Notes under the pieces: generated by a model
What the model was told of the DNA's origin: nothing
The model's database searches: none
Seen by the model: the letters and a program-made list of their open reading frames with translations, nothing else
In this document: piece by piece, positions 16,288 through 25,248 of the stretch
Position numbering within the stretch: the stretch's first letter is position 1
How the letters are laid out: each line of letters begins with the position of its first letter
Translations under genes and position numbers: made by a program
Virus record (IMG/VR): IMGVR_UViG_2700989400_000006
Span: 1-25,248 of that record
Length of the DNA: 25,248 nucleotides
Source: a virus
Taxonomy: Duplodnaviria > Heunggongvirae > Uroviricota > Caudoviricetes
Strand: one strand, 5' to 3'

Positions 16288-16710
16288 TCACTTCAGTAAA
16301 TACCGAACATCCCCCTGATAAAACGACAATATGCGCTGCATAACTTCGCTTTTACGACACTCAGTACAAATCATATTATGACGCCTGTCGTAACGACGTA
16401 TTTCTCCATCAGGTAATGACCAGATAAGGTCCGGATCAACCGCAGATGGTTTCTTCAGCTTTGCCCTTGAGAGCTTTTTACGGGCATTTTGCCAGTCCTT
16501 ACGCGCCTGTTCAGACGGGAATAACCCGTAACCAGAGTTGTATACATCGCCACTGGCAACCAGCTCTCTGGCCAGAACGTTCATCAGATATCTTGTTGCC
16601 CCAGTTTTAGTTTCCAGTTGTCGTAACGTCTCGCGCCCACTCTGGCGTACGAGTTCAACAACCTGCCCTTTAATTTTTTCCCGCTCTTCTTGTGTAAAAA
16701 CTTTTGCCAC
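16288..16710 (-). CDS. Hypothetical phage protein (140 aa) downstream of the replication gene
   Basis: ORF from the track; basic C-terminal half (RKKLSRAKLKK) and a possible helix-turn-helix (LRQLETKTGATRYLMNVLARELVASG). Confidence 0.5.
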   Translation of the reverse strand: MAKVFTQEEREKIKGQVVELVRQSGRETLRQLETKTGATRYLMNVLARELVASGDVYNSGYGLFPSEQARKDWQNARKKLSRAKLKKPSAVDPDLIWSLPDGEIRRYDRRHNMICTECRKSEVMQRILSFYQGDVRYLLK

Positions 16711-16750
16711 AAGCCCTCCTGAAAATTACCTCATGACCAGAAATTAACAC

Positions 16751-17827
16751 TTACCCCCTGAAGCCCGGCGGAATTTCGTTATCCGGTTCAGAAATATGAT
16801 TCACACAACGCTGGTTGTTCGTGCCGCTTACCGGGAGCAACCAGGGATTCTCAAAATTCCGGTCCGGTCCAAAAAACGTCGTCGCTCGCTGAACAAATTC
16901 CGTTCCCGTTTTCCCGGTAGCCGCCAAGTATCTTGCGTAACGCCTCACGCCATCCAGCATGGCCTCTGGTGGCACCCCCTCGCGTAATCTGGCCTTCCAG
17001 GCACTGAAAGCGGATTTCTTCGGGTTTGCCCCAGCACGCAACGGGTACTCCCGCCAGACCTGTTCGAACACATCCGGATAATCCACTCGTCCCACAGACT
17101 GCCCGGTGTTTTCCGGGACTACCCGATCGGCTTCCCGCTGAATGGCGGAATCGGCTTCGGGCTGCTGCAGTTGGTGTGATTGCTCCGGTCTTGCGGTCAT
17201 CACCTGCTGCACAGCGCCCGAATCGGCTTTCAGCGCATACGCTGAATCGGCTTCCGGTGTCGTGCCTGCTGGCTGACCAGGATTGACGGTCTGAACATCC
17301 CCTGCCTGGTTCGTGGCGTTTTTTACGCCATGGACCATAGTGTTTTGATCTTCTTGATCTGTATCTTTATCTGTATCTTTATCTGTCGTGACTCGTCGTG
17401 ACATGTGCGTGACATTTCGTGACGCGCCGTGACAATCGCCATTTTGTTCCCGCTTTCTTTCCCTCTCTCGCTGCGCCCTCTTGCGCTCTGCAGGAGATTT
17501 TGCGGTTTGCGAAATATTGCCGTTGTCCTCTTTAAGCACCTGGCGTTTTTCCCATCCAGTGATTAAATCACCATCAAGTACCCGCCCCTGCATCGTCTGC
17601 AAAATTGAATCAATTACCTCTTCTGTCACGTCGAGCGCACTTGCCAAATCTTCTGTCGTGACATCAATGTGACCTCGCGTGACATTTCGTGACGCGCTCA
17701 CCAGGAGGTGGATATACACTGCCATCACTGTTGCAATTGGCTGCCCTGACACCCTGGCAATTGTTCGCCACTTAGGGTCATTTGGCATGTCATGCCATAA
17801 TCTGAGCCAGGCGTTAGCCATACTCAC
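16751..17827 (-). CDS. Replication initiation / replisome-organizer protein (lambda O analogue) with internal iterons
   Basis: 358-aa ORF downstream of the Cro-like/YdaT-like pair; N-terminus MANAWLRLWHDMPNDPKWRTIARVSGQPIATV resembles phage replication-protein N-terminal domains; the gene contains two clusters of phased CGTGAC repeats, as ori-lambda lies inside O. Confidence 0.65.
   Translation of the reverse strand: MSMANAWLRLWHDMPNDPKWRTIARVSGQPIATVMAVYIHLLVSASRNVTRGHIDVTTEDLASALDVTEEVIDSILQTMQGRVLDGDLITGWEKRQVLKEDNGNISQTAKSPAERKRAQRERERKREQNGDCHGASRNVTHMSRRVTTDKDTDKDTDQEDQNTMVHGVKNATNQAGDVQTVNPGQPAGTTPEADSAYALKADSGAVQQVMTARPEQSHQLQQPEADSAIQREADRVVPENTGQSVGRVDYPDVFEQVWREYPLRAGANPKKSAFSAWKARLREGVPPEAMLDGVRRYARYLAATGKTGTEFVQRATTFFGPDRNFENPWLLPVSGTNNQRCVNHISEPDNEIPPGFRG
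17385..17433. repeat. Iteron cluster 1: five copies of (G/T)CGTGAC at 10-11-bp spacing
   Basis: CGTGAC at 17387, 17397, 17408, 17418, 17428 (helically phased); flanked on the lower-coordinate side by an AT-rich tandem repeat (TATCTGTATCTTTA, 17355-17385). Confidence 0.6.
17625..17693. repeat. Iteron cluster 2: four direct copies of (C/T)GTGAC plus one inverted copy
   Basis: Direct copies at 17657, 17668 (TGTGAC), 17678, 17688 and an inverted GTCACG at 17625; the 21-bp block GCGTGACATTTCGTGACGCGC occurs in both clusters (17408-17428 and 17678-17698). Confidence 0.6.
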
Positions 17828-17892
17828 CTCTTTTGATACCGAATCTTTTTACTCACAAATTGCCGGAAGTGATCCGGTATGAATATTGCGAG

Positions 17893-18318
17893 TCAATGCA
17901 CAGCCACAATATTTCCTGCAGGGCCACCACGATTCATCTGGTTGAAACCAGCGATCGCCACTGCGACAAAATCATCAGCGTCTCTCACCAGTCGTTCCCG
18001 CGTCTCCACTAGTTCCCGAAAATATGCTGAGCTATGACTGCGCATTCGGGCCACCAGCAGAGGTGGCATTGCTTTTTCGATAGCTGGTAACAACGCCTGA
18101 ATTTTTTTAACCGCATCAGGGGTGTCTTTCTCCACCCAGCGGAAAATTTTCTGAGTATTGCGAGCCAGGGCTTCCGGATGGTTGTCGTCATACAGTTCCG
18201 GGAACGTCATTCCCAGCTCGAAATACGCTTTGGTAATTTTCGCAGCCGGTACTTTTTCGCCGTCCGGATGCGCCCAGGCATTCATCGCCATGCGGATGTG
18301 TTCATGCTTGATTTTCAT
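17893..18318 (-). CDS. YdaT-like protein (CII-position gene of Rac-type immunity regions)
   Basis: 141-aa ORF whose start overlaps the Cro-like gene stop; size and position match Rac YdaT as I recall; no sequence check possible. Confidence 0.5.
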   Translation of the reverse strand: MKIKHEHIRMAMNAWAHPDGEKVPAAKITKAYFELGMTFPELYDDNHPEALARNTQKIFRWVEKDTPDAVKKIQALLPAIEKAMPPLLVARMRSHSSAYFRELVETRERLVRDADDFVAVAIAGFNQMNRGGPAGNIVAVH

Positions 18319-18569
18319 GAATCAACTCCCATCAGCTTTTTCGTAGTAGTTTTATTCCTGCCAATAGTTAAAATTGCATCGGCAGAAAATAATCCGTTTG
18401 ATGCAAGAGCGATTTTTTCAGCGTAATTTGTTTCGCCGGTATATTCTGTGCGAGGCAATTTTCCGTTATCCATCCATTTATAGATTGCTCTTTGGCTGAC
18501 ACCACAAACGTCGGCCACAACAGCAACGCGAACAGTTTTGATTACATCTTCAAGTGTTTTCTGGTTCAT
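18315..18569 (-). CDS. Cro-like HTH regulator (YdaS/DicC-position)
   Basis: 84-aa ORF divergent from the repressor gene; HTH segment VCGVSQRAIYKWMDNGKLP. Confidence 0.65.
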   Translation of the reverse strand: MNQKTLEDVIKTVRVAVVADVCGVSQRAIYKWMDNGKLPRTEYTGETNYAEKIALASNGLFSADAILTIGRNKTTTKKLMGVDS

Positions 18570-18648
18570 ATCACCCTCACAGTGTGAACTTTAAGTACAT
18601 GCTATAACAGAACTGACAGTACATTCAAGAGCGAATATCATTGAACTT
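18570..18648. promoter_or_regulatory. Divergent promoter/operator region between the Cro-like gene and the repressor gene
   Basis: 79-bp intergenic region between divergent start codons; contains two direct AGTACAT motifs (18594-18600, 18618-18624); the same motif family recurs downstream of the repressor gene at 19144-19184. Confidence 0.5.
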
Positions 18649-19068
18649 ATGGTTCATGAAGATAAAGCGCGTAAAGAGTTCGCCAGTAGGCTTGCGCTAG
18701 CCTGTGAAAACGCTGGTTATGAACAACATGGAAGGCAGGCAGAAATTGCCCGTCGAATGAAATTAACACCAAAAGCGGTTAGCAAATGGTTTAATGGCGA
18801 AACAATTCCTCGCCGGGAGAAATTAAGGGAATTAGCAACACTAATAGGAACAACACCAACCTATCTTTTGGGAGAGGATACAGAAGAAAGTGGACAGGTA
18901 CGTTTCTATCAGGAGTTAAATCCAAGACAAAAAATCATCATTGACCTTCTGGACGAGCTCCCTGACAGTGAGACAGATGAACTTTTAAAAACTCTTGAAG
19001 AGAAAAAACAGAAGTACAATGCAATTTACGAAGAGTTAGCACGAAAGAAAAAACAAAAAGCCTCTTAA
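18649..19068 (+). CDS. Prophage repressor, XRE-family HTH (DicA/RacR-type, no S24 peptidase domain)
   Basis: 139-aa ORF with N-terminal HTH (RQAEIARRMKLTPKAVSKWFNGE) and charged helical C-terminus; too short for a LexA-like autocleavage domain; divergent from the Cro-like gene. Confidence 0.8.
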   Translation: MVHEDKARKEFASRLALACENAGYEQHGRQAEIARRMKLTPKAVSKWFNGETIPRREKLRELATLIGTTPTYLLGEDTEESGQVRFYQELNPRQKIIIDLLDELPDSETDELLKTLEEKKQKYNAIYEELARKKKQKAS

Positions 19069-23952: not shown

Positions 23953-25248
23953 ATGAGAGAAGTTGAAATGAAATATCCGACAGGCGTGGAAAACCATGGA
24001 GGGAAATTACGTATCTGGTTTGTTTATAAAGGCGTAAGAGTCAGGGAAAATCTGGGGGTTCCTGACACAGCAAAAAACAGGCGCGTTGCAGGTGAACTAC
24101 GCTCCTCTGTTTGTTACGCAATAAAAACTGGTGTTTTCGACTATGCAAAACAGTTTCCCTCCTCACGCAATCTGGAAAAATTTGGTGAGGCCCGACAAGA
24201 TTTAACCATAAAAGAACTGGCTGAAAAATTTCTGGCACTGAAAGAAACTGAAGTCGCCAAAGCATCACTCAACACATACCGTGCCGTCATCAAAAATATC
24301 CTGAGCATAATCGGTGAAAAAAATCTTGCCTCATCGATTAATAAAGAAAAATTACTGGAGGTTCGTAAAGAGCTACTGACTGGATACCAGATCCCCAAAA
24401 GTAACTATATTGTTACACAACCAGGGAGATCGGCTGTAACTGTAAATAATTACATGACAAATCTTAACGCCGTGTTCCAGTTTGGTGTTGATAACGGTTA
24501 CCTGGCAGATAATCCGTTTAAGGGGATCTCGCCATTAAAGGAATCAAGAACCATTCCTGATCCTCTTTCACGGGAGGAATTTATCCGTCTTATCGACGCC
24601 TGCAGAAATCAGCAGGCCAAAAATTTATGGTGTGTTTCTGTTTATACAGGCATTCGCCCTGGTGAACTGTGTGCGCTTGGGTGGGAGGACATAGATCTGA
24701 AAAATGGAACAATGATGATCAGGAGAAATTTAGCAAAAGATCGTTTTACGGTACCGAAAACACAGGCTGGTACCAATCGGGTAATTCACCTTATCAAGCC
24801 TGCAATCGACGCTCTCAGGAGTCAGATGACACTAACGAGGCTGAGCAAAGAACATATTATTGACGTTCACCTCAGAGAGTTCGGCAGAACAGAAAAACAA
24901 AAATGCACCTTTGTTTTTCAACCTGAAGTGTCAGCGAGAGTAAAAAATTATGGTGACCATTTTACCGTTGACTCAATAAGGCAGATGTGGGACGCAGCGA
25001 TAAAGCGCGCTGGCCTCCGCCACCGCAAATCATATCAGTCGAGACATACTTATGCCTGCTGGTCGTTGACAGCCGGTGCCAACCCGGCATTCATAGCAAA
25101 CCAGATGGGACATGCAGATGCGCAAATGGTGTTTCAGGTATACGGGAAATGGATGTCTGAAAACAATAATGCACAGGTAGCCCTGTTAAATACACAGCTA
25201 AGCGAGTTTGCCCCAACCATGCCCCAAAACGAGGTGGTGAAAAATTAA
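23953..25248 (+). CDS. Tyrosine recombinase (phage integrase)
   Basis: 431-aa ORF whose stop codon is the last three bases of the window. The C-terminal domain carries the conserved Arg (TGIRPGELCAL), the H-x-x-R box (SRHTYACWSL) and a candidate catalytic Tyr (VFQVYGKW). The start may be the downstream ATG at 23968 (MKYPTG...). Confidence 0.9.
   Translation: MREVEMKYPTGVENHGGKLRIWFVYKGVRVRENLGVPDTAKNRRVAGELRSSVCYAIKTGVFDYAKQFPSSRNLEKFGEARQDLTIKELAEKFLALKETEVAKASLNTYRAVIKNILSIIGEKNLASSINKEKLLEVRKELLTGYQIPKSNYIVTQPGRSAVTVNNYMTNLNAVFQFGVDNGYLADNPFKGISPLKESRTIPDPLSREEFIRLIDACRNQQAKNLWCVSVYTGIRPGELCALGWEDIDLKNGTMMIRRNLAKDRFTVPKTQAGTNRVIHLIKPAIDALRSQMTLTRLSKEHIIDVHLREFGRTEKQKCTFVFQPEVSARVKNYGDHFTVDSIRQMWDAAIKRAGLRHRKSYQSRHTYACWSLTAGANPAFIANQMGHADAQMVFQVYGKWMSENNNAQVALLNTQLSEFAPTMPQNEVVKN

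Follow-up and report, generated by a model that had tools for sequence, protein, structure and literature searches.

The window, a 25,248-nucleotide stretch covering positions 1 to 25,248 of IMG/VR virus record IMGVR_UViG_2700989400_000006, carries on its minus strand an open reading frame that contains two arrays of short repeats and an AT-rich tract (Table 1). The encoded 358-aa protein matches PHROG 3729 'replication initiation protein' (E = 5.6e-258) and, at E = 5e-6 and 2e-4, PHROG 'replisome organizer' families, and its relatives are named 'phage replisome organizer' or 'DnaT-like ssDNA-binding domain-containing protein' at NCBI; the RefSeq label of the gene itself is 'hypothetical protein'.

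Table 1. Features of the initiator gene and of the DNA elements lying within it
Feature	Position	Strand	Remarks
Replication initiator gene, 358 aa	16751..17827	-	ORF; PHROG 3729 match
C-terminal tail GTNNQRCVNHISEPDNEIPPGFRG	16754..16825	-	similar to the C-terminal end of DnaT, the E. coli replication-restart protein
Imperfect inverted repeat, 13-nt arms, AAAAA loop	17307..17337	.	just past AT tract
AT tract, presumed DNA-unwinding element	17340..17386	-	gene orientation ACAGATAAAGATACAGATAAAGATACAGATCAAGAAGATCAAAAC; strand-asymmetric
Array B, origin-proximal iterons	17387..17433	-	five exact GTCACG, gene-orientation spacing 10, 10, 11, 10 bp
Single inverted repeat copy	17625..17630	+	GTCACG on + strand, 27 bp from array A
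Array A, accessory iterons	17657..17693	-	GTCACG at 17688-17693, 17678-17683, and 17657-17662; GTCACA at 17668-17673

The initiator and its embedded repeats

The protein consists of an N-terminal helical domain of DNA-binding type (approximately aa 1 to 95), a basic helix (aa 112 to 129), a disordered linker (aa 130 to 165 or further), and a C-terminal domain that ends in a DnaT-like tail. A Pfam scan of the full 358 aa returned no family at E <= 0.01. PF09681 (Phage_rep_org_N) aligned over positions 1 to 119 of its 121 and scored 15.6 bits where the cut-off is 23.3 (E = 0.017), and an hhalign comparison of the N domain with SPP1 G38P gave no similarity (probability, 0.07%). PF04492 (Phage_rep_O) was absent among N-domain Pfam matches at E <= 1; the first-pass annotation had placed the iterons within an O-like ORF, and they do lie inside the ORF, but a relationship to lambda O is not detectable. 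An AlphaFold2 model of aa 1 to 165 gives the N domain the topology helix, loop/strand, helix, helix, and beta-hairpin, with pLDDT values of 86 to 97 for most of residues 11 to 90 and of 80 for the block from 41 to 50, while the linker stretch coded by array B and the AT tract scores below 50 and is modelled as disordered. A Foldseek search of this N-domain model against the PDB found no significant match, the best hits being to MarR/GntR/sigma-4 structures (winged-helix MarR/GntR at E >= 0.2). Because the fold search gave no significant match and the PF09681 score is below threshold, we regard the domain as putatively DNA binding.

The C-terminal tail matches 6aep 'Primosomal protein 1' in a phmmer search of the PDB (E = 0.0029), as well as 2ru8 and 9zbt, and the PDB sequence search with the initiator returned nothing beyond this DnaT tail. 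Positions 156 to 179 of the NCBIfam DnaT model also match it at E = 7.4e-4, far under the family cut-off. The resemblance to DnaT is short and weak and confined to the last 24 residues, and PF17948 (DnaT DNA-binding domain) was not detected in the window protein; it was found in 9 of 60 family members, ones with other C domains. The tail is probably the handle that recruits host DnaB-DnaC. Between the initiator gene and Q, the prophage encodes neither a helicase nor a loader.

On the + strand, exact copies of CGTGAC (GTCACG in the orientation of the gene) start at 17387, 17397, 17408, 17418, and 17428 in array B, in steps of 10, 11, 10, and 10 bp, and at 17657, 17678, and 17688 in array A; a single inverted copy lies between the arrays. 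The first-pass annotation had described five helically spaced copies at 17387-17433 (its cluster 1, our array B, downstream at gene nt 395-441), and all five proved exact and 10 to 11 bp apart. In its cluster 2 (our array A, upstream at gene nt 135-171, with the inverted copy at nt 198-203), it had counted four direct copies and one inverted copy, of which the inverted and three direct ones are exact, while the fourth direct copy is TGTGAC, with one mismatch to CGTGAC. The array A spacing is 11, 10, and 10 bp because this one-mismatch copy occupies 17668-17673. The 21-bp block GCGTGACATTTCGTGACGCGC, which it had described as duplicated between the clusters, is indeed identical at 17407-17427 and 17677-17697. 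The 16 CGTGAC sites in the window are unremarkable in number by themselves (9.3 expected). Nine of the 16 fall within 307 bp (Poisson P = 7e-16, the background being 7 sites in 24.9 kb), and when 16 sites were placed at random 100,000 times, nine never fell within such a span.

The array B copies lie in codon phases 2, 3, 1, 3, and 1 and code for part of the disordered linker (CHGASRNVTHMSRRVT). Array A codes for aa 45 to 57, the end of a helix and the loop preceding a putative helix-turn-helix, and the inverted copy encodes D-V-T within that putative helix-turn-helix. We also considered the loop coded by array A as a DNA-reading element in its own right. This was rated unlikely, because relatives without array A keep the 'EERG' loop and because the corresponding loop in winged-helix folds usually faces away from DNA.

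The AT tract is 70% AT, with 72% purine in the coding strand. Three 12-nt repeats lie in it, as do two GATC sites (17347 and 17356); GC content drops to 30% over 17340-17379. The AT-rich tandem repeat that had been noted as abutting cluster 1 and encoding DKDT is present at 17352-17387 and does encode DKDT, but its unit, TCTT[G/T]ATCTGT[A/C] in three copies, is 12 nt long and not 14. The inverted repeat just beyond the tract folds as DNA at -8.7 kcal/mol (z = -2.84; 4 of 200 shuffles equally good). Shigella phage 75/02 Stx has the same hairpin with a compensatory change of the closing pair from T-A to A-T, and many homologues carry short hairpins with differing stems 22 to 60 nt past the AT tract, each weakly significant. 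The inverted repeat may be a hairpin or cruciform part of an origin, a suggestion that we make with low confidence. An Rfam scan of 17100-17900 for an RNA element gave one sub-threshold match that we attribute to chance, and this candidate was rejected.

Recurrence of the layout across the family

The locus was compared with about 60 homologous genes from many bacterial groups, 61 of which entered the tally of arrays. Both arrays were present in 45 genes and the linker array alone in 12, and no gene had the upstream array alone. An iteron array at the position of array B was detected in 57 of the 61, always adjoining the AT tract, and the array A counterpart sits about 230 to 260 bp upstream in N-domain coding DNA in the 45 genes that have it. 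Nearly every family member has array B, the one abutting the AT tract, and array A is accessory, missing in 12 relatives. The two clusters about 270 bp apart in the first-pass annotation are both present, but they are not equivalent. Their relative helical phase is not constant, with offsets of 250 to 281 bp that leave differing remainders modulo 10.5 (judged by eye). Absence of the repeats from functional homologues is not seen family-wide; repeats are weak or missing in L110, L112, L125, L127, L130, and L142, and a few homologues are without them (e.g., L127 and L130). A scan of viral contigs yielded 80 loci, which are uninformative for covariation because all are ~99% identical to the window.

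In nearly all homologues, a tract of the form (C)AGATAAAGATA(A/C)AGA comes directly after the last iteron. Across the family, this tract has a mean AT content of 62% versus 44% for the gene and a purine content of 70% versus 57%. It is translated in differing frames, as DKDTD, QIREE, or PDTDTD among homologues, and is therefore conserved as DNA. The arrangement of iterons and adjoining AT tract, which recurs in about 50 of 60 homologues, has the layout of the class of origins embedded in the initiator gene (lambda, P22, and SPP1).

The arrays could alternatively be operators for the early-right operon, mediating autoregulation or a roadblock by the initiator or another phage regulator, with the true origin elsewhere. 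Array A begins only 135 nt into the gene with the inverted copy as its neighbour, and initiators of iteron plasmids often autoregulate via iteron-like sites. Against this, promoter-like sites in 16700-18700 are at chance (2 versus 2.0 expected; both promoter and terminator counts are at the level of shuffles), and array A is dispensable in the 12 relatives mentioned. The element that is near-universal, array B with the AT- and purine-rich linker tract, is moreover an origin signature (PMC5737612, PMC7466680). We consider operators improbable as an account of the whole locus, although they may still fit array A alone.

Selection on the repeats as DNA and exchange of the N-terminal module

The periodic-hexamer score of the window gene exceeds that of 300 of 300 synonymous-codon shuffles, and all shuffles are likewise beaten in about 40 of 60 homologues. 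The hexamers occur in every codon phase and are translated variously as VT, SR, and CH/GH, and therefore the protein sequence does not explain them. Over 23 GTCACG-type genes from different genera, codon entropy within array A is 0 to 0.8 bit (one codon, 1.2), compared with 1.5 to 2.4 bit for most of the flanking four- and six-fold codons. Synonymous sites in the array are nearly fixed (Ser TCA, 21 of 23; Val GTC, Thr ACG, and Gly GGT, 22 of 23 each), while flanking Val, Ala, Leu, and Pro positions use four to six codons. About 14 homologues of the GTCACG type have the inverted copy at the corresponding position. Its Val67 is GTG in 19 of 20 sequences, but the DNA-level constraint is only partial, because the codons of Asp66 and Thr68 vary.

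These patterns bear on whether the repeats arose only through repetition of a peptide (ASRNVT...) or through recent internal duplication or gene conversion, with no function as DNA sites. The identical 21-bp block does code for ASRNVT twice, and array A lies within a structured domain of conserved protein sequence. Such an origin of the repeats nevertheless appears very improbable in view of the codon phases and shuffles, of synonymous sites that are frozen within the hexamers only, and of array B peptides that differ widely among homologues. Homologues with as little as about 40% N-domain identity also keep the arrangement, with a hexamer that has changed but is the same in the two arrays. 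The repeat is GTCACG in about 24 of the 61 genes, (C)GAACGC in about 14, and GTAACG in about 6, and its type is equal in the two arrays of a gene, barring register shifts and one mixed case. Gene conversion, as may be read from the identical 21-bp block, could account for some of the between-array co-variation.

The repeats track the N domain and not the C domain or the downstream helicase or loader gene. Pseudomonas phage P7869 has only the N domain in common with the window protein (69.5% aa identity), followed by an unrelated C domain and a downstream primase-helicase gene, and it carries GTCACG arrays at both of the same positions. Shigella phage 75/02 Stx has only the C domain in common and no GTCACG, and a third type of N domain, fused to the same C domain, is accompanied by different linker repeats of roughly 20 bp. 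The isolated phage Tritos bears an identical module of rep and DUF977, without a loader. Elsewhere in the family, the downstream partners are lambda-P-like proteins (11), DnaB-like helicases (5), IstB/DnaC-like proteins (4), and Toprim primase-helicases, a variety that would be expected of a portable origin-recognition module. Since the arrays lie inside the gene and are physically inherited with the N domain, linkage alone is no proof of recognition, and for this reason the argument rests on the synonymous-site constraint and the co-variation. Taken with the shuffles, codon entropy, relatives sharing only one of the two domains, and matching of repeat types, these data argue for selection of the repeats as DNA and for their specificity to the N-terminal module.

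That the arrays serve a host protein or another phage function overlapping the gene, such as a partition centromere or packaging, is scarcely credible and was rejected on context and lineage-specific co-variation: two sets of about five helically spaced direct repeats do resemble ParR-type centromeres (the R1 parC centromere consists of two sets of 11-bp repeats), but no partition or terminase gene is adjacent, neighbouring genes and C domains differ among carriers, and the repeat type follows the N-domain lineage over gamma-, beta-, and alpha-proteobacterial to Acidobacteria hosts, the GTCACG type itself being found in both gamma- and beta-proteobacterial hosts, an argument against a host-factor site.

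A proposed origin and its relation to known systems

We conclude that the locus is quite probably the replication origin of a lambdoid E. coli prophage with Rac-like immunity, situated inside its own initiator gene. The first-pass annotation had proposed a likely phage origin composed of iterons and an AT-rich region in the replication gene, and the comparative evidence (conservation, shuffles, and frozen synonymous sites) supports it. The best reading of the sequence places the origin core at array B and the AT tract, possibly together with the hairpin at 17307-17337. The N-terminal helical domain would bind the 10- to 11-bp-phased iterons head to tail on one face of the helix, and the resulting nucleoprotein complex, aided by supercoiling, would melt the adjoining AT tract. 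The C-terminal domain would then bring host DnaB-DnaC via the DnaT-like tail. Array A and the inverted copy at 17625 would be accessory putative binding sites for the same initiator, with array A most likely stabilising or regulating the origin complex by cooperative looping, by titration or handcuffing, or as a roadblock on the initiator transcript.

A stronger version, which we hold to be rather unlikely, is a truly bipartite origin, in which the initiator acts on two co-evolving arrays, the upstream one within the code for its own DNA-binding domain. The DNA between them (230 to 260 bp) would form a loop or be wrapped, or else array A would brake synthesis of the initiator or the first fork, and the conserved AGATAA-repeat element and a hairpin would form a common platform for different helicase systems. 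If so, a change of repeat type would be needed in both arrays and, via the array A codons, in the protein, and the shared loading platform would serve host DnaB-DnaC (through the DnaT-like tail), P-like, DnaC-like, and primase-helicase systems.

Among the closest known systems is ori-lambda, in the middle of gene O. There, an AT-rich unwinding tract comes after the iterons, and this DNA codes for a linker, itself dispensable, that joins the N-terminal half of O, which binds the origin, to the C-terminal half, which recruits the helicase (PMC7466680, PMC6022878). In lambda and the six-iteron variants of Stx phages, iteron number changes by in-frame insertion, and modules swap at the linker joint (PMC7466680, PMC6022878). 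The locus had been said to mirror ori-lambda, and the likeness holds for the mid-gene position, the order of iterons and AT tract inside the initiator gene, the disordered linker that they encode, the in-frame variation in iteron number, and the exchange of modules at the joint. It does not extend to the repeats themselves. Lambda iterons are palindromic, inverted repeats of about 18 to 19 bp with an O dimer on each (PMC6022878), whereas those described here are direct cores of 6 to 8 bp every 10 to 11 bp, with no internal dyad. The locus further differs in its second array 230 to 260 bp upstream in N-domain coding sequence, in an initiator without detected O similarity or PF04492 match, and in having no P-like loader, which 11 relatives have downstream.

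SPP1 oriL lies inside gene 38, with direct repeats (AB boxes) adjoining an AT-rich unwinding element (PMC5737612, PMC6316719), and in the SPP1 sequence, the repeats and a AACAATGATAACAA x3 tract are also within a low-complexity linker. Gene 38 encodes a replisome organizer (G38P), a label that NCBI also gives to the relatives here, and G38P binds two separate sets of sites (oriL and oriR). The SPP1 oriR, however, is about 13 kb away, compared with 260 bp in the same gene here, and SPP1 supplies its own loader and helicase. Iteron plasmids (P1 oriR/incC and incA, F, and R6K) have two direct-repeat clusters for one initiator, flanking or overlapping its gene, one next to an AT-rich region and the other dispensable. 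They differ in their iterons of about 19 to 22 bp, their double winged-helix initiators of the RepA/pi type, and a control cluster outside coding sequence. Origins of Staphylococcus aureus pathogenicity islands (SaPI) have two sets of hexanucleotide iterons and an AT-rich region, but the sets flank this region downstream of the Rep helicase gene, whereas here both arrays are on one side of the AT tract, within the initiator gene, whose product lacks a helicase domain. No description of this family's origin was found in the searchable literature, including for GTCACG iterons, for phage origins of the replisome-organizer or DnaT-like kind, and for phage Tritos (results for the latter being swamped by an author name). 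The origin is most likely of the lambda/SPP1 style, within the initiator gene, in a two-part variant that we did not find described.

The replication module has some match in 2,925 of 5,426 complete E. coli genomes, with at least 80% of the query matched in 1,647. Isolated phages that infect Escherichia, Pseudomonas, and Aeromonas have it as well. With its origin delimited to about 100 to 350 bp and a single protein, it is a candidate minimal replicon, and it could help to explain how a phage that lacks a loader would capture host DnaB-DnaC. The iterons and the AGATAA tract could also be used in annotation as a marker of prophage origins. With its matched pairs of initiator and iteron type (GTCACG, GTAACG, and CGAACGC), the family forms a natural series in which to follow the evolution of origin specificity where the sites sit in the gene of the protein presumed to read them.

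Prophage setting of the replication gene

The window is a lambdoid E. coli prophage, in which a 358-aa replication gene follows a Rac-like immunity region. The 1.2-kb stretch around this gene occurs at 100% identity in E. coli chromosomes and, used as a query, found a match in 2925 of 5426 complete E. coli genomes, with at least 80% of the query covered in 1647. The gene is annotated there as "hypothetical protein"; PHROGs labels it a replication initiation protein (phrog_3729, E = 5.6e-258), and NCBI names its relatives "phage replisome organizer" or "DnaT-like ssDNA-binding domain-containing protein." Three consecutive genes lying after the replication module and before the nin-like region have no Pfam match and match the PADLOC candidate-defence models PDLC03004 Hp1 (E = 7.6e-41), PDLC03005 Hp2 (9.6e-11), and PDLC03006 Hp3 (4.2e-11).

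Features of the prophage and of the candidate origin, in window coordinates
Feature	Position	Strand	Remark
Integrase	23953-25248
Exonuclease, 823 aa
Repressor	18649-19068	+	Rac-like immunity region
Cro-like gene	18315-18569	-	Rac-like immunity region
YdaT/CII-like gene	17893-18318	-	Rac-like immunity region
Replication gene, 358 aa	16751-17827	-	after immunity region
Upstream array	17657-17693		gene nt 135-171
Linker array	17387-17433		gene nt 395-441; downstream one, adjoins AT tract
Hairpin	17307-17337		just past AT tract
DnaT-like tail	16754-16825	-	last 24 residues
DUF977/Ren-like, three candidate defence genes, DUF968, RusA, Q, methylase			beyond the 358-aa gene, in this order
Candidate defence genes, 363, 415, and 227 aa	12995-15997	-

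Phased repeats and constraint on their DNA

The first-pass annotation had described two clusters of CGTGAC iterons inside an O-like replication gene and read them as a likely phage origin resembling ori-lambda. The 16 CGTGAC sites of the window are unremarkable in number (9.3 ± 3.5 in shuffles); nine of them fall within 17387-17693 (Poisson P = 7e-16), a clustering reached in 0 of 100,000 random placements. All five copies of the linker array are exact, spaced 10, 11, 10, and 10 bp. The upstream array had been credited with four direct copies and one inverted copy; three direct copies and the inverted copy (17625) are exact, while the fourth direct copy is TGTGAC (17668), and the direct copies are spaced 11, 10, and 10 bp. 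The proposed 21-bp duplication is exact (17407-17427 and 17677-17697), and the AT-rich tandem repeat beside the linker array is present as three copies of a 12-nt unit, with GC content down to 30%. The repeats do lie inside the replication gene, which is on the minus strand, so that they read GTCACG in gene orientation. In the E. coli version, the AT-rich tract includes two GATC (Dam) sites (17347 and 17356), a possible link to methylation or control by SeqA.

The codon phases of the nine copies are 3, 1, 2, and 1 in the upstream array and 2, 3, 1, 3, and 1 in the linker array, with VT, SR, or CH/GH as the encoded residues. The number of same-hexamer pairs 10 to 11 bp apart is 5 in this gene, compared with a mean of 0.5 and a maximum of 3 in 300 shuffles that kept protein and codon usage, and is likewise above shuffles in about 40 of 60 homologues. 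Across 23 GTCACG-type genes from different genera, upstream-array codons are near-invariant (Ser46 TCA in 21; Val49 GTC, Thr50 ACG, Gly52 GGT, and Val56 GTC in 22 each), while adjacent Val, Ala, Leu, and Pro residues use four to six codons (entropy, 1.5 to 2.4 bit). Because synonymous codons are near-fixed inside the array, shuffles are exceeded, and codon phases are diverse, these comparisons indicate that selection on the iterons acts at the DNA level.

The hairpin past the AT tract is weak (z = -2.84). It is retained in Shigella phage 75/02 Stx (L002 2513-2545), whose N-domain differs, with the closing pair changed in a compensatory way from T-A to A-T, and many homologues carry hairpins with different stems at that place (loops such as TGAC, TAAC, or TCACTACGTTC). 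The hairpin is possibly a third component of the origin, with weak support at any single locus. Its plus strand also scores terminator-like, antisense to the 358-aa gene.

Homologues and modular exchange

A tblastn search against phage genomes identified a modular protein, with similarity confined to aa 1-140 in some phages and to aa 160-358 or 224-358 in others. Pseudomonas phage P7869 has an N-domain 69.5% identical, an unrelated C-domain, a primase-helicase downstream, and GTCACG at gene nt 129-160, accompanied by inverted copies including one at 192, and again at 388-418. The same C-domain on other N-domains is accompanied by other linker elements: Shigella phage 75/02 Stx, which has only the C-domain in common, is without GTCACG, and its linker holds a purine-rich tract and the hairpin. 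Phage phiSTEC1575-Stx2k (L150 847-975) fuses a third N-domain type to this C-domain, and its Gly/Ser-rich linker contains four or five ~20-bp repeats (GGTGCAG.A.ATTCACTAG) that are probably that phage's own origin.

Scanned over one genome per species, an N-domain alignment detected 63 loci in gamma-, beta-, and alpha-proteobacteria, Acidobacteria, and other groups. GTCACG arrays occupy both positions in about 26 of these loci. A de novo periodic-hexamer search found the same layout in more distant homologues with GTAACG, (C)GAACGC, or GTGACG. Of 61 genes tallied, both arrays are present in 45, the linker array alone in 12, the upstream array alone in none, and neither in 4; repeat type agrees between the two arrays of one gene, the exceptions being one mixed case and shifts of register. 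In nearly all genes the last linker iteron is followed immediately by an AT tract rich in purines, (C)AGATAAAGATA(A/C)AGA (mean AT, 62% versus 44% gene-wide; purine, 70% versus 57%), which is taken as a DNA element since it is translated in different frames among homologues. The upstream array of Escherichia albertii (L085, gene nt 155-186) contains an insertion of 21 bp, the length of two iterons and of seven codons (TCHGVSL), which shows iterons gained in frame-preserving pairs, the 10- plus 11-bp units fitting the reading frame.

Most loci scored as lacking arrays (L110, L112, and L125) nevertheless retain one or two AACGC-like copies ahead of an AGATAA tract. L127 and L130 have neither iterons nor AT tract and instead a PVPVP-type linker; with L134 and L135, both cut at contig ends, they are four paralogous N-domain genes in one beta-proteobacterial MAG (Day6-1_bin-090), and these genes may not bear origins. 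In a Serratia MAG (L126) and Pantoea (L141), TACTACGTA-type palindromic repeats stand in place of the family's iterons and AT tract (gene nt 330-470), and the C-terminal part is longer and different, starting …YVYYVATTDGDVVRVGISRNPWAR.

The initiator protein and the candidate origin

An AlphaFold2 model of aa 1-165 (30-sequence alignment; mean pLDDT, 72; block means of 86 to 97 for most of residues 11-90 and 80 for 41-50) has helices at 3-16, 18-27, 31-47, 58-65, and 69-79; residues 48-57 form a loop that includes a short strand, residues 80-88 a beta-hairpin, and residues 112-129 a basic helix. The modelled N-domain topology resembles a winged helix; Foldseek gave weak MarR/GntR/sigma-4 matches (E ≥ 0.2), Pfam Phage_rep_org_N aligned end to end below threshold, and hhalign found no similarity to SPP1 G38P. 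The upstream array encodes a helix end and loop ahead of a putative HTH, where the peptide varies with repeat type (SRNVTRGH, SNATERGR, and similar). As residues 130-165 are modelled as disordered, the linker array and AT tract are predicted to encode a disordered linker, as origin DNA likewise does in lambda O.

In its last 24 residues (…NHISEPDNEIPPGFRG) the protein resembles the C-terminal end of E. coli DnaT (PDB 6aep, 2ru8, and 9zbt), a restart factor believed to bring in DnaB-DnaC (PMC5778457, PMC13220808). Pfam DnaT occurs in 9 of 60 C-domains of homologues, and the related C-domain of phiSTEC1575-Stx2k ends IPAGFRG. The window annotation has no helicase or loader gene between the 358-aa gene and Q, and the same rep and DUF977 module recurs in the isolated phage Tritos. 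Elsewhere among homologues the next gene is lambda-P-like (11), a DnaB-like helicase (5), IstB/DnaC-like (4), or a Toprim primase-helicase.

Taken as sequence evidence, the linker array and AT tract appear to be a near-universal core with the classic signature of an origin inside an initiator gene, and we consider it quite probable that 17340-17433 is an origin core bound by the 358-aa protein. The N-domain would bind the phased repeats, the complex would melt the purine-rich AT tract, and the C-domain would recruit a helicase, in this prophage that of the host via the DnaT-like tail. Origins are embedded in initiator genes in lambda (PMC7466680) and at SPP1 oriL (PMC5737612, PMC6316719). SPP1 gene 38 (L149 2540-2627) has the same layout in an N/D-rich linker, with AAACGACAGAGAAACG-type repeats followed by three copies of AACAATGATAACAA; its repeats contain AAACG, recalling the AACG core of the GTAACG and CGAACGC types, which may be coincidence.

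A purely regulatory operator may still apply to the upstream array, but would leave the near-universal junction of iterons and AT tract unexplained, and a promoter scan of 16700-18700 found no promoter excess. Host-factor, partition, or packaging sites are unlikely, given that repeat type tracks N-domain lineage across very different hosts while neighbour genes vary. The diversity of codon phases, the shuffle results, and the constrained synonymous sites rule out that the iterons are purely an artefact of a peptide repeat or a duplication.

Within the proposed origin, the upstream array looks like a lineage-specific accessory, presumably not needed for origin function generally because the relatives that diverge most lack it. 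Where present, its strong DNA-level constraint and its repeat type matching the origin array suggest that the same initiator reads it. Several roles are conceivable for it: enhancing the origin cooperatively or by looping, restraining it by titration or handcuffing as P1 incA does, or blocking transcription or forks, the roadblock function proposed for SPP1 oriR.

An origin inside the gene of a modular initiator is a textbook kind of element. The searchable literature yielded no description of the particulars seen here: an initiator family of its own, direct repeats of a hexamer spaced by about one helical turn, a conserved AGATAA-type tract presumed to unwind, and a second array that co-varies with the first and lies in the coding sequence of the DNA-binding domain.
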